A DNA stretch of 64,000 nt, from the NCBI RefSeq assembly GCF_988242995.1, contig NZ_OZ547043.1; one strand, given 5' to 3'. Position 1 is the stretch's first letter, and every line of letters starts with the position of its first letter. The translations under genes and the position numbers were made by a program. Shown piece by piece: positions 3,491-53,603 of this stretch. Below the pieces are notes generated by a model. It worked only from the letters and a program-made list of their open reading frames with translations. It was not told the DNA's origin and did no database searches.

Positions 3491-4819
3491 ATGTCCAGAA
3501 TCAATAAGTTCGTACTTACAGTCAGTCTGCTGATTTTTATCATGATTTCAGCAGTTGCCTGCGGGATCTACACTCAAATGGTAAAGGAACGGGTGTATGG
3601 CCTGAAACAGTCCGTTATTGATACTGCTTTTGCGGTGGCAAATATTGCTGAATATCGGCGTAGCGTGGCAATTGATCTCATCAACACGCTAAACCCCACG
3701 GAGGAACAGCTGTTGGTTGGTTTGCGCACAGCTTACGCCGACTCGGTTTCACCCTCTTATTTGTACGATGTCGGTCCTTATCTGATTTCCAGTGACGAAT
3801 GTATTCAGGTAAAGGAGTTCGAGAAAAATTATTGTGCAGATATTATGCAGATTGTGAAGTATCGACATGTCAAAAATACAGGGTTTATCTCTTTTGACGG
3901 TAAAACCTTCGTCTATTACCTCTATCCGGTAACTCATAATCGTAGTCTGATATTTTTGCTTGGTCTGGAGCGTTTTTCTTTACTGTCAAAATCGCTGGCG
4001 ATGGATAGCGAGAACCTGATGTTCTCTCTGTTTAAGAACGGTAAACCGGTGACCGGTGATGAATATAATGCTAAAAACGCCATCTTCACCGTTTCGGAAG
4101 CGATGGAGCACTTCGCCTATTTGCCGACCGGATTGTACGTATTTGCGTATAAAAAAGATGTTTATTTGCGGGTCTGTACATTGATTATTTTCTTTGCCGC
4201 ATTGGTGGCAGTGATATCGGGTGTCAGTTGCCTCTATCTGGTACGCAGAGTGATTAATCGTGGTATTGTGGAGAAAGAAGCCATCATTAATAACCATTTT
4301 GAACGCGTACTGGATGGCGGGCTTTTCTTTTCAGCTGCCGATGTCAAAAAACTCTACAGTTTGTATAACTCGGCGTTCCTGGATGACCTGACCAAAGCAA
4401 TGGGCAGAAAATCCTTTGACGAAGATTTAAAAGCGCTGCCGGAAAAAGGCGGTTATTTGTGCCTGTTTGACGTCGATAAATTCAAAAACATCAACGACAC
4501 CTTCGGTCATTTGCTGGGCGATGAAGTGTTGATGAAAGTGGTGAAAATCCTTAAATCACAGATCCCCGTAGATAAAGGTAAAGTCTACCGCTTCGGCGGT
4601 GACGAATTTGCGGTGATTTATACGGGTGGAACGCTGGAAGAGTTGCTATCGATTCTAAAAGAAATTGTTCATTTCCAGGTGGGAAGCATTAATTTAAGCA
4701 CCAGTATCGGTGTAGCGCATTCAAATGAATGTACTACCGTTGAACGCTTGAAAATGCTGGCGGATGAGCGGCTGTATAAGAGTAAGAAAAACGGCAGGGC
4801 GCAGATTAGCTGGCAGTAG
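3491..4819 (+). CDS. dgcI: diguanylate cyclase DgcI (YliF), membrane GGDEF protein
   Basis: 442-aa ORF, N-terminal TM segments, C-terminal GGDEF-like region (RFGGDEF at ...[14 protein letters not shown]). Confidence 0.9.
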
Positions 4820-4888
4820 AATTAGAATAGTGTTAGTACCCCTTAATCAAGGGGTACTAATGAATGTGGTAAATCATTTGCAAACATT

Positions 4889-5218
4889 TTACTTTGCAAA
4901 AACTTCCGGCCCTTTTATTGCCAATGTATTCAAAATACGTAATGCCGGGCCGCTCGGTTTTATTTCATTACGTTCCCATTTCGAGACACTTTCTTTTGAC
5001 ATTCCCATTGTATGTGCCAGCACGGATTGTGACATGCCGTATCGGGTGCGGATGGCTTTGATCTCTTCACCCGTCATTGATTTGACTTTGGCTATACGGG
5101 CGCTGACTTCACGAGCTTTGACCATGACGGCAATGGCATCAACTTCACTATCAGACATCAGGCCCAGTGCATTCAGTTCCTTTGCATCTTCCAGCATCAT
5201 TTGTAATTTATCGCTCAT
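4889..5218 (-). CDS. XRE-family helix-turn-helix antitoxin (HigA-like)
   Basis: 109-aa ORF with HTH segment (IRTRYGMSQSVLAHTMGMSKESVSKWERNEIKPSGPALRILN); lies downstream of and overlaps the toxin ORF by 11 bp; this locus is not in K-12 gene order (yliF and rimO are adjacent b-numbers). Confidence 0.8.
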   Translation of the reverse strand: MSDKLQMMLEDAKELNALGLMSDSEVDAIAVMVKAREVSARIAKVKSMTGEEIKAIRTRYGMSQSVLAHTMGMSKESVSKWERNEIKPSGPALRILNTLAIKGPEVFAK

Positions 5219-5594
5219 TTTTCACCTCAATCAAAAAGCCAGTTTCGATCAAATCCTCTATTTGCTTATTGCTAAAGGCCAGAAATGCATTTGCCATTTT
5301 TTTGTAGGCCGCCAGTTCATCATCTTCGATTTCTTTGGTTCCTTTACTGCTTAGACCACTCTTGGACCAACCATCATAAAAAAACACATGATTTGCTGAT
5401 TTAAAAAAGATAATTGTTCTGGCTCCACCACTCTTTCCTTGTTGGAGGGGTAAACGTTTTTTGATGACACCGCTACCTAAATCAGCCTCCCATATGCCCT
5501 GCATCACTTCTTCAGCGGCAGCCATGAGAACTTTATCGTGAATACCAAGTTTTTTCGTGCTTTGGCTGAATCGTCTTGCCTTATACACACCCAT
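5208..5594 (-). CDS. RelE/ParE-superfamily toxin (HigB/Gp49-like)
   Basis: 128-aa ORF, toxin-first arrangement, motif ...KRLPLQQGKSGGARTIIFF...FFYDGWSKS... typical of Gp49/HigB-like toxins; SD AAGGATGG ~8 nt upstream of ATG. Confidence 0.75.
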   Translation of the reverse strand: MGVYKARRFSQSTKKLGIHDKVLMAAAEEVMQGIWEADLGSGVIKKRLPLQQGKSGGARTIIFFKSANHVFFYDGWSKSGLSSKGTKEIEDDELAAYKKMANAFLAFSNKQIEDLIETGFLIEVKNER

Positions 5595-5609
5595 ACATCC
5601 ATCCTTGTG

Positions 5610-5635
5610 GTAATGTTTACTATAGTAACCATTAC
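5610..5635 (-). promoter_or_regulatory. Imperfect 26-bp palindrome (12-bp arms) just upstream of the toxin start; candidate TA operator overlapping promoter
   Basis: gtaatgtttact-at-agtaaccattac read directly; position 15-40 bp upstream of toxin ATG; TA operons are typically autoregulated via such operators. Confidence 0.45.
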
Positions 5636-5819
5636 GCTTATTTCAAGTAATTGCGATCAAAACTTTAATTTGGTGTGAAAAAGTGAGAGTTGCCTCGAGT
5701 ACGATTCATTTTTCTCGATTTATGCGTCAGGGGATTTTGTGCGTAAGGGTAGGACATCGGGAAGGGCAGCAGAGGCAGATCGAAGAACAATATCCTTGTT
5801 AGATCTGCCTTAAGATTAA

Positions 5820-7145
5820 TTAAACCCGGCTACCCCACAAATCGTACTCATCGGCGTGCTCGACTTTCACACGCAGGATATCACCCGGCTTAACGTTGGT
5901 TTCACCATTGAGATAAACCGCGCCGTCGATTTCCGGTGCATCTGCCATGCTGCGACCAATCGCGCCTTCTTCGTCCACTTCGTCGATAATCACCAGAATT
6001 TCACGGCCCACTTTCTCTTGCAGGCGCTCGGCGGAAATCTGCTGCTGCAGCTGCATGAAACGGTTCCAGCGTTCTTCTTTCACTTCTTCCGGAACCTGGT
6101 CAGGCAGGGCATTGGCGTCTGCACCTTCAACCGGGCTGTATTTAAAGCAGCCAACGCGATCCAGACGCGCTTCTTTCAGGAAGTCGAGTAGCATCTGGAA
6201 ATCTTCTTCCGTCTCGCCAGGGAAGCCGACAATAAAGGTTGAGCGTAGGGTCAGTTCCGGGCAGATTTCGCGCCACTGTTTGATGCGCGCCAGTTGGCGA
6301 TCTACAGAACCCGGACGCTTCATCAGTTTGAGAATGCGCGGGCTGGCGTGCTGCAACGGAATGTCCAGATACGGCAGGATTTTGCCTTCTGCCATCAGTG
6401 GGATGACGTCGTCCACATGCGGATAAGGGTAAACGTAGTGCAGACGTGTCCAGATCCCCAGTTTCGATAACTGTTCGCACAGGCTGACCATGCTGGTTTT
6501 TACCGGCTCGCCGTTGTGGAAGCCAGTACGATGTTTAACATCAACGCCATAGGCGGAAGTATCCTGCGAGATCACCAGAATCTCTTTAACGCCAGCATCT
6601 ACCAGACGTTTCGCTTCACTTAACACTTCGCCAATCGGACGGCTCACCAGGTCGCCGCGCATAGACGGAATAATGCAGAAGGTGCAGCGGTGATTACAGC
6701 CTTCAGAAATTTTCAGATAGGCATAATGACGCGGCGTCAGTTTCACGCCTTGTTCTGGCACCAGGCTCAGGAATGGGTTGTGTTTCGGTTTTGGCACGTA
6801 GTGATGAACGTGCTCCAGAACCTGCTCATAGCTATGAGGCCCGGTGATTTCCAGCACTTTCGGGTGGACTTCGCGGATCTGATCTTCTTTTGCCCCCAGA
6901 CAACCGGTCACAATTACCTTGCCGTTTTCATTCAACGCTTCACCAATGGCTTCCAGTGATTCTTGTACCGCGCTGTCAATAAAGCCGCAGGTGTTGACGA
7001 TCACCATGTCCGCATCGTCATAGCTCGGTACCACGTCATAACCTTCAGTGCGTAGTTCGGTGAGAATACGCTCTGAATCAACAAGGTTTTTCGGACAGCC
7101 AAGGGAAACAAAGCCGATTTTCGGCTGGGGAGTTACTTTGCTCAT
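5820..7145 (-). CDS. rimO: ribosomal protein S12 methylthiotransferase RimO
   Basis: 441-aa ORF, radical-SAM CxxxCxxC ([10 protein letters not shown]) and MTTase N-terminal cysteines; matches K-12 RimO. Confidence 0.95.
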
Positions 7146-7741: not shown

Positions 7742-7851
7742 AAACTAAGGGGGAGAAAGCGTCTCCCCCTTCATGTTTAAGTTTTTGTAAAAATGAATTT
7801 GTTATCTCCTCCACTGACTACGCTTTAAGCCAGAGTCAATCCGGAGGCGTT

Positions 7852-21020: not shown

Positions 21021-21923
21021 GTGAAAATTGCCATATTGTCCCGGGATGGAACGCTCTATTCGTGTAAGCGGCTGCGTGAAGCCGCTATACAGCGCGGTCA
21101 CCTGGTTGAAATTCTTGATCCGCTTTCTTGCTACATGAACATAAATCCTGCGGCGTCTTCTATTCACTACAAAGGCCGCAAGTTACCCCATTTTGACGCA
21201 GTGATCCCGCGTATTGGCACCGCCATTACCTTTTATGGGACGGCGGCACTGCGCCAGTTCGAGATGCTGGGGAGCTATCCGCTCAATGAGTCGGTCGCCA
21301 TTGCCCGGGCGCGTGACAAATTGCGTTCCATGCAACTGCTGGCGCGTCAGGGCATCGACCTGCCTGTCACGGGCATTGCGCATTCGCCGGATGATACCAG
21401 CGATTTAATCGACATGGTCGGTGGTGCGCCGCTGGTGGTCAAGCTGGTTGAAGGCACGCAGGGAATTGGTGTCGTGCTGGCGGAGACGCGCCAGGCGGCG
21501 GAAAGCGTGATTGACGCTTTCCGCGGTCTGAACGCGCATATTCTGGTGCAGGAATATATCAAAGAGGCGCAAGGGTGCGATATCCGCTGTCTGGTTGTTG
21601 GCGATGAAGTGGTCGCTGCGATTGAACGGCGGGCGAAAGAGGGCGATTTTCGTTCCAATTTGCATCGTGGCGGCGCGGCAAGCGTCGCCAGTATCACACC
21701 ACAGGAGCGTGAAATCGCGATAAAAGCCGCGCGAACGATGGCGCTGGACGTTGCTGGTGTGGATATTCTGCGTGCTAATCGCGGGCCGTTGGTGATGGAA
21801 GTGAATGCGTCGCCGGGGCTGGAAGGAATAGAAAAAACCACCGGTATCGACATCGCGGGTAAAATGATCCGCTGGATCGAACGCCACGCTACGACAGAAT
21901 ATTGCCTGAAAACGGGTGGTTAG
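21021..21923 (+). CDS. rimK: ribosomal protein S6 glutamate ligase RimK (ATP-grasp)
   Basis: 300-aa ORF, ATP-grasp motifs; matches K-12 RimK. Confidence 0.95.
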
Positions 21924-29571: not shown

Positions 29572-29609
29572 AATAAAAAAAGACGGACAACTTAGTGGGT
29601 TGTCCGTCT
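29572..29609 (-). terminator. intrinsic terminator of artPIQM operon
   Basis: 11-bp perfect stem AGACGGACAAC / GTTGTCCGTCT with 7-nt loop, followed (in transcript direction) by U-run. Confidence 0.75.
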
Positions 29610-29634
29610 TCATTATAAGAATTTATGCACTATG

Positions 29635-53572: not shown

Positions 53573-53603
53573 AAAAATGCCAGCCGATCGGGCTGGCATT
53601 TTG
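53573..53603. terminator. bidirectional intrinsic terminator between convergent macB and cspD
   Basis: aaaaaTGCCAGCCgatcGGCTGGCAttttg: 8-bp stem with A- and T-runs. Confidence 0.75.

Follow-up and report, generated by a model that had tools for sequence, protein, structure and literature searches.

According to Dar and Sorek 2018 (PMC6061677), Rho-dependent transcripts of Escherichia coli have their steady-state 3' ends a short way past stable stem-loops. Such stem-loops have neither U-rich tails nor upstream A-tracts, and they protect the RNA against PNPase and RNase II. The sequence situated just downstream of them is enriched in C over G and carries rut sites (PMC6061677).

In the 64-kb stretch of DNA analyzed here (the window, whose numbering is used throughout), a perfect palindrome stands between two facing transcription units, the diguanylate cyclase gene dgcI on one side and a toxin-antitoxin operon on the other. 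To all appearances it is an ordinary stem-loop of a kind already known, U-less and placed at the 3' ends of facing genes. As several of its traits match those of the class described by Dar and Sorek, we take it to be a protective 3'-end stem-loop shared by the facing dgcI and toxin-antitoxin transcripts, a reading to which we assign a probability of about 0.6. The literature searched contained nothing on this locus or on the 3' ends of its transcripts, and neither Hücker 2017 nor Adams 2021 lists it in the accompanying data.

The palindrome and its surroundings

The gene upstream of the palindrome on the plus strand is dgcI (3491-4819), which codes for a GGDEF diguanylate cyclase, as judged from the open reading frame and from the way in which RefSeq annotates an identical E. 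coli record. The two-gene operon that faces it lies on the minus strand. Its first gene encodes a RelE-type toxin (5208-5594; PF06296, E = 6.9e-33) and its second an HTH_3 (Xre-type) antitoxin (4889-5218; PF01381, E = 1.9e-9), both assignments being in agreement with the annotation; no solved structure of a relative was found. The other flank of the cassette is formed by rimO (5820-7145, minus strand; open reading frame and annotation). Promoter and repeat scans revealed a composite site at 5610-5646 on the minus strand, in which a promoter-like sequence (5646 to 5619, TTGAAA-16-TATAGT, a 10/12 promoter match) overlaps a near-palindrome (5610-5635, GTAATGTTTACTATAGTAACCATTAC, 93% complementary). 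The near-palindrome is probably the operator through which this uncharacterised PF06296 toxin / HTH_3 antitoxin pair regulates its own expression.

On the plus strand, a 196-codon open frame (4764-5354) spans the palindrome and, in antisense, the entire antitoxin gene together with a portion of the toxin gene. A stop-free stretch resembling it is present in an enteric relative of the cassette (locus L035) and none in the Kluyvera relatives; given this lack of conservation in Kluyvera, the frame is probably not a gene.

The repeat finder and direct reading of the sequence both gave the perfect palindrome TTAGTACCCCTT-aatc-AAGGGGTACTAA at 4833-4860 (both strands), exactly as an earlier sequence-only reading of this DNA had described it. 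Its two arms (4833-4844 and 4849-4860) are 12 nt long and 100% complementary, and they enclose the 4-nt loop AATC. Between the dgcI stop codon TAG (4817-4819) and the palindrome lie 13 nt, and 28 nt separate it from the stop codon of the antitoxin gene on the minus strand. The pattern is single in the 64-kb window, was matched in 0 of 100 shuffles and greatly exceeds what chance would give; for perfect inverted repeats with arms of 12 bp or more and loops of 3-8 nt, Markov simulations predict 0.02 in the window, which contains three. Folding as RNA gave the plus-strand form an energy of -21.4 kcal/mol (z = -4.6) and the minus-strand form one of -17.7 kcal/mol (z = -5.0), a stability that was equalled by none of 200 shuffles. 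The same hairpin is obtained in the dgcI RNA (plus strand) and in the toxin-antitoxin RNA (minus strand). An Rfam scan at E values up to 10 returned no family in the region 4500-6000.

Four other perfect inverted repeats of 10-12 bp are found in the window, at 53574-53602, 29580-29610, 21498-21524 and 7747-7771. The repeat at 29580-29610 scores as a minus-strand terminator; those at 21498-21524 and 7747-7771 are U-less, as is the palindrome at 4833-4860.

Among the traits of a canonical terminator, the palindrome possesses the stable stem-loop soon after the stop codon and lacks the U-tract and the A-tract. The tails that follow the stem (UGAAUGUGG, plus strand; CACUAUUCU, minus strand) are U-poor: three U are counted in the first 8 nt past the full stem on either strand, and two to three past a stem trimmed to 9 bp. 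The sequences upstream of the hairpin, AGAATTAGAATAGTG and GATTTACCACATTCA, are not A-tracts. Furthermore, the palindrome is not among the entries of a consensus terminator scan of the window, and a d'Aubenton-Carafa-type score was -12 and -23 for the palindrome, compared with +35 to +40 for the canonical terminators of the same window. The sequence-only reading had stated that no U-run stands on either side, which holds for both tails, and that the palindrome is not a canonical intrinsic terminator, a view with which its absence from the scan and the negative scores in both directions are in agreement.

On the toxin-antitoxin transcript, the 80 nt that lie directly downstream of the hairpin (4753-4832, minus strand) are antisense to the dgcI 3' end. 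Base counts showed this stretch to be C-rich and G-poor (C = 28, G = 10), which places it in the top 0.45% of the 80-nt windows taken on both strands of the 64-kb window and makes it a candidate Rho-utilisation region. Such a C-over-G bias is partly expected for the antisense strand of any coding region, and the dgcI 3' end that carries it is also present in K-12. On the plus strand, the 80 nt downstream of the hairpin on the dgcI side are unremarkable, the excess of C over G being only 4-8.

Two alleles of the dgcI-rimO region

Comparison with K-12 and ST131 delimited an allele-specific segment of 996 bp (4819-5814), which contains the hairpin, the antitoxin and toxin genes, the promoter region and a second hairpin on the rimO side. 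K-12 W3110 and ST131 have 42 bp (ATCATTATTCGCAGGCCGGACAAATGATTTTGCCCGGCCTGA) instead of these 996 bp, and the 42-bp sequence of the empty site was not found in the 64-kb window. The homology between the two alleles stops at the two stop codons, on the dgcI side and on the rimO side. A forced alignment of the two alleles gave 11/17 matches between ACTAATGAATGTG and the K-12 loop ACAAATGATTTTG, which were taken as chance.

On the dgcI side the alleles diverge at position 4819, which is the last base of the dgcI stop codon and precedes the start of the palindrome by 14 nt. The proposal that the palindrome stands at the junction is right as far as proximity is concerned, and the divergence point itself lies outside the palindrome. 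The stronger proposal, that it marks the integration junction of the cassette, found no support. As 42 bp are swapped for 996 bp, the event is an allelic replacement and not a clean insertion. No terminal inverted repeats and no target duplication were seen at the 996-bp segment, the repeat finder revealed no inverted or direct repeat joining 4819-4870 with 5760-5820, and no recombinase gene is present, the segment encoding only the two toxin-antitoxin genes.

The 42-bp segment forms a hairpin of its own, which begins 12 nt after the dgcI stop codon, is U-less and has a folding energy of -20 to -24 kcal/mol (z of -4.4 and -5.8; d scores of -15 and -23). At the rimO end of the cassette, the repeat finder and folding identified an imperfect hairpin on both strands (5773-5810, AGGCAGATC...GATCTGCCT; -16.2 and -16.9 kcal/mol, z about -3). 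It has no U-run, lies 10 nt past the rimO stop codon and is likely to be the rimO 3'-end hairpin; the cassette allele would therefore provide rimO with a 3' hairpin separate from that of dgcI and the toxin-antitoxin operon. The palindrome belongs to one of two old dgcI-rimO intergenic alleles, each of which brings its own U-less 3' hairpin.

The distribution of the palindrome was surveyed in 5,426 complete E. coli genomes with a 38-nt probe centred on it. The probe matched 1,138 genomes, at one site each, and none of the remaining 4,288; two "places" per genome were reported because the palindrome matches both strands. Some cassette DNA at dgcI-rimO is carried by an equal number of genomes (1,138), of which 1,128 have at least 80% of the cassette. 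The cassette is present in about 21% of the complete E. coli genomes, including O157:H7, 042 and ATCC 8739. In the comparison with strains devoid of the toxin-antitoxin pair, the palindrome was absent from the empty sites of K-12 and ST131. Since it is strictly linked to the toxin-antitoxin allele, it is not a feature that dgcI and rimO share whether or not the pair is there.

Two alleles of the palindrome itself were observed. In 696 genomes it is identical to the probe, with T at 4844 and a perfect stem, and in 441 it shows one mismatch. This mismatch is T4844G in O157:H7 Sakai, TW14359, ATCC 8739 and a few sampled contigs, its identity having been read in these rather than in all 441 genomes; in Sakai the palindrome occupies approximately 1,001,012-1,001,039 of NC_002695.2. 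In the G allele the innermost pair is broken, which leaves an 11-bp stem and a 6-nt loop (-16.8 vs -17.7 kcal/mol). As the cassette alleles within E. coli are at least 98.5% identical, the conservation of the stem within the species is uninformative with regard to selection.

In some E. coli lineages (L031-L034, toxin gene at 2501-2815) the toxin is shortened to 104 aa from 128 aa. This short form, protein P0013, was recorded in 41 blocks of the searched collection and suggests toxin decay in part of the population. The contigs concerned keep an intact antitoxin and the palindrome, and both the T and the G alleles of the latter were seen among them. In two genomes filed as "complete" E. coli in RefSeq, BS-01 (NZ_CP172816.1, L004) and HS-02 (NZ_CP172818.1, L039), the cassette region is degraded and homopolymer-rich, which looks like uncorrected long-read error. 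These "divergent" copies, ridden with homopolymers and also yielding spurious hypothetical proteins, were disregarded.

Plasmid and phage records gave no true match to the palindrome. Three matches recorded as "plasmid" seem to come from E. coli chromosomes deposited under that label; two of these records are 4.9 Mb long. In species-representative genomes, the pattern AGTACCCCT-N6-AGGGGTACT was found at 8 loci, of which 7 are unrelated hairpins in Firmicutes, Actinobacteria and Saccharibacteria, a number near the approximately 4 that a hand estimate attributes to chance. The eighth (L013, CAMP/JAIJJM010000872.1), a 1,198-nt contig of a "Collinsella sp." metagenome-assembled genome, displays the dgcI/palindrome/antitoxin junction and is identical to E. 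coli over the compared stretch of approximately 100 nt. In all likelihood, close to certainty, the contig comes from E. coli and was mis-binned into the Collinsella assembly.

The exact toxin protein was found in the dgcI-rimO context only. In the nearest relatives outside E. coli, the toxin is 68-76% and the antitoxin 73-81% identical. Wherever the downstream flank could be read, the antitoxin of these relatives faces gsiD, in the same chromosomal neighbourhood; loci L046-L048 end before the next gene, so that their downstream neighbour is not readable. In Kluyvera georgiana (L026) and a close relative of it (L040), the order is PTS genes, toxin-antitoxin, gsiDCB; in K. sichuanensis (L042), bssR, toxin-antitoxin, gsiDCB; in the enteric locus L035, rimO, a SUKH gene, toxin-antitoxin, gsiDCB; and on a metagenome scaffold (L049), toxin-antitoxin, about 290 nt, gsiD. 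The E. coli arrangement differs in that pdeI-dgcI sits between gsiD and the antitoxin gene.

The chromosomal relatives of the cassette share the gsi-rimO-bssR neighbourhood, and the pairwise identities of toxin and antitoxin order the lineages as gsiD does. This common neighbourhood, together with a divergence parallel to that of gsiD, points to an old residence and not to a recent insertion. The comparison suggests that the toxin-antitoxin cassette is an old resident of the neighbourhood, with vertical descent and local rearrangement. A presence/absence polymorphism within E. coli fits these data, and a mobile cassette with a junction scar does not. The idea of a recent insertion has to be corrected, since in several enteric genera the pair seems to have occupied the gsi-rimO neighbourhood for a long time.

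The palindrome does not accompany the cassette outside E. coli. After the antitoxin gene it is replaced by other sequence in Kluyvera, in two further enterics and in an Enterobacter assembly, and the plasmid copies of the cassette in Providencia and Xenorhabdus are also devoid of it. Its absence from related cassettes, which look long resident, further weakens the claim that it marks an integration junction.

A probable protective 3' hairpin and the competing explanations

Between the antitoxin stop codon and that of the facing gene, a non-homologous, U-less stem-loop was seen in six of the seven chromosomal relatives compared, namely L026 (Kluyvera georgiana), L040, L042 (K. sichuanensis), L046, L035 and L050 (Enterobacter). 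These equivalent hairpins are mostly G+C-rich. In the seventh, L049, with its spacer of about 290 nt, no clear hairpin was found. When the sequences were compared by reading, the stem was unchanged between L026 and L040 and the flanks differed; between L042 and L046 the stem was retained and the loop largely rewritten. The occurrence of a hairpin in six of seven relatives despite unrelated sequences argues that a hairpin is wanted at this position. As hairpins between facing genes are so common, those of the relatives are weak evidence for any one mechanism, and the hairpin of L026 (z of -1.3) is not more stable than shuffles of its own G+C-rich sequence.

From the features of the locus, we infer the following scheme. 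The palindrome would be transcribed from both strands, and each RNA would form a stable stem-loop of 11-12 bp just past its stop codon. Because no U-tract follows, the hairpin alone probably does not free the RNA polymerase. Transcription would most likely continue into the untranslated antisense of the facing gene and would stop there, either by the action of Rho or by collision with an oncoming polymerase. Thereafter the RNA would be shortened by the 3'-to-5' exonucleases PNPase and RNase II until they reach the hairpin base, and the hairpin would in this way both set and protect the steady-state 3' end. By limiting read-through, the arrangement would keep dgcI transcription from making antisense RNA against the antitoxin. 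The role of the palindrome in the cassette allele would be that of the unrelated 42-bp hairpin for dgcI and rimO in K-12-type genomes.

An RNA stability element was the alternative offered by the sequence-only reading, and it appears to be the best-supported explanation. The polymorphism found in 441 genomes, which breaks the innermost pair of the stem, speaks against a protective role. Beyond annotation, the hairpin matters little; should it limit the passage of dgcI transcription into the antitoxin gene, the balance between toxin and antitoxin could be affected.

It is also conceivable, and in our opinion unlikely, that the palindrome is a weak, non-canonical bidirectional intrinsic terminator which acts without a U-tract, perhaps aided by NusA/NusG or by head-on polymerase collisions. 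Its position and stability are terminator-like, and most facing gene pairs have a bidirectional terminator at such a site. The window provides an example at 53574-53602 (AAAATGCCAGCC...GGCTGGCATTTT), where a perfect 12-bp palindrome scores as a canonical bidirectional terminator. Furthermore, collisions between polymerases are reported in a preprint (10.1101/2022.10.23.513370) to contribute to bidirectional termination. However, the palindrome at 4833-4860 has few U after its stem and no A-tract, its d scores are -12 and -23, and the consensus scan did not retain it. In addition, A-U pairs prevail in the outer part of its stem, whose 3' arm closes with ACUAA instead of leading into U residues.

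Another explanation, to which we give a small chance, is that the palindrome is a fossil at the DNA level, devoid of present function. An inverted duplication or a template switch at an old gene-order junction would have created it, and it would have been kept as harmless. A perfect palindrome of 12 bp does need either selection or a mechanical origin, and this one lies within 14 nt of the allele boundary. In one version of this explanation, the palindrome would derive from the 12 nt with which an ancestral gsiD ended. In the outgroup loci that come closest, L035 and L049, the antitoxin gene faces gsiD directly, and the reverse complement of their gsiD 3' end is identical to TACCCCTTAATC (left arm and loop, plus strand, 4836-4848). 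The matched end consists of the last 12 nt of gsiD (L035:3261-3272 and L049:1010-1021), which terminates in ..AAG ATT AAG GGG TAA (..GATTAAGGGGTA-A). A 12-nt match of this kind was obtained in about 4 of 10,000 shuffles of the 69-nt intergenic region (P about 4e-4), which counts in favour of a fossil. However, the identity runs opposite to synteny; in the syntenic orientation it covers 8 nt only, with the loop reverse-complemented. The comparison with gsiD was made post hoc, no further homology flanks the match, and the gsiD gene of E. coli itself ends differently, in AAAATTAAAGGATAG (943-957). The hairpins found at this position in six of the seven chromosomal relatives, despite their unrelated sequences, also speak against this explanation.

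A fossil origin and a present function in RNA are not mutually exclusive. An improbable scenario that combines them would start from an older toxin-antitoxin pair: the Escherichia lineage would have received pdeI-dgcI by insertion between gsiD and the antitoxin gene, and a scrap of the gsiD end would have been copied into a perfect hairpin and later used as a 3'-end structure, the K-12 state being in that case a secondary loss.

That the palindrome is an operator for a dimeric DNA-binding protein, such as the HTH antitoxin or a regulator of dgcI, is very improbable. Its perfect two-fold symmetry and 12-bp half-sites are typical of operators, and the gene of an HTH protein is only 28 nt away. 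Nevertheless, the palindrome is downstream of both genes and not at a promoter. The promoter has its own near-palindrome (5610-5635), which is unrelated in sequence and has a similar counterpart upstream of the toxin gene in L035; the operator idea was rejected because the palindrome shows no similarity to it. Moreover, the palindrome occurs nowhere else in the window or in any of the 5,426 E. coli genomes, and relatives of the cassette have entirely different sequences at its position.

Finally, it is hardly credible that the cassette was brought in by a mobile element or at a recombination site (attC, dif-like Xer, REP- or MITE-type) of which the palindrome would be the end or the site itself, despite its closeness to the edge of the allele-specific DNA. 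The far end of the 996-bp segment carries no repeat that matches it, and direct repeats at the flanks are missing. The palindrome is single-copy in each genome that has it, is absent from true plasmid and phage records and, in the representative genomes of other species, appears only in the mis-binned E. coli contig. No recombinase gene is at hand, and a comparison by eye showed no likeness to attC core sites or XerCD arms. The cassette relatives appear to be vertically inherited beside gsiD, and the site does not travel, plasmid and chromosomal relatives carrying other sequence after the antitoxin gene.

Comparison with known systems

The reading that we favour, a protective 3' stem-loop shared by the two facing transcripts, can be set against four described types of element. 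Compared with the stem-loops of Dar and Sorek (PMC6061677), the palindrome is likewise stable, soon after a stop codon and free of a U-rich tail and of an A-tract. The C-over-G bias directly downstream, partly expected of antisense coding DNA, is strong on the toxin-antitoxin strand and unremarkable on the dgcI side. The palindrome departs from that class in that a single perfect one would serve two facing transcripts. With the canonical bidirectional intrinsic terminators it has in common a location between facing stop codons and the formation of the same hairpin on both strands; unlike them, it has no flanking A-tract and U-tract, and it scores negatively both ways. Extragenic palindromes of the REP/BIME type are also found in 3' untranslated regions and could act, as this one could, as exonuclease barriers; in contrast to them, the palindrome is single-copy and, compared by eye, shows no resemblance to the REP consensus. 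Its counterpart in position is the K-12/ST131 hairpin (CAGGCCGG...CCGGCCTG), which starts 12 nt after the dgcI stop codon, against 13 nt for the palindrome, and is U-less and of similar stability, but has an unrelated G+C-rich stem and serves dgcI and rimO.
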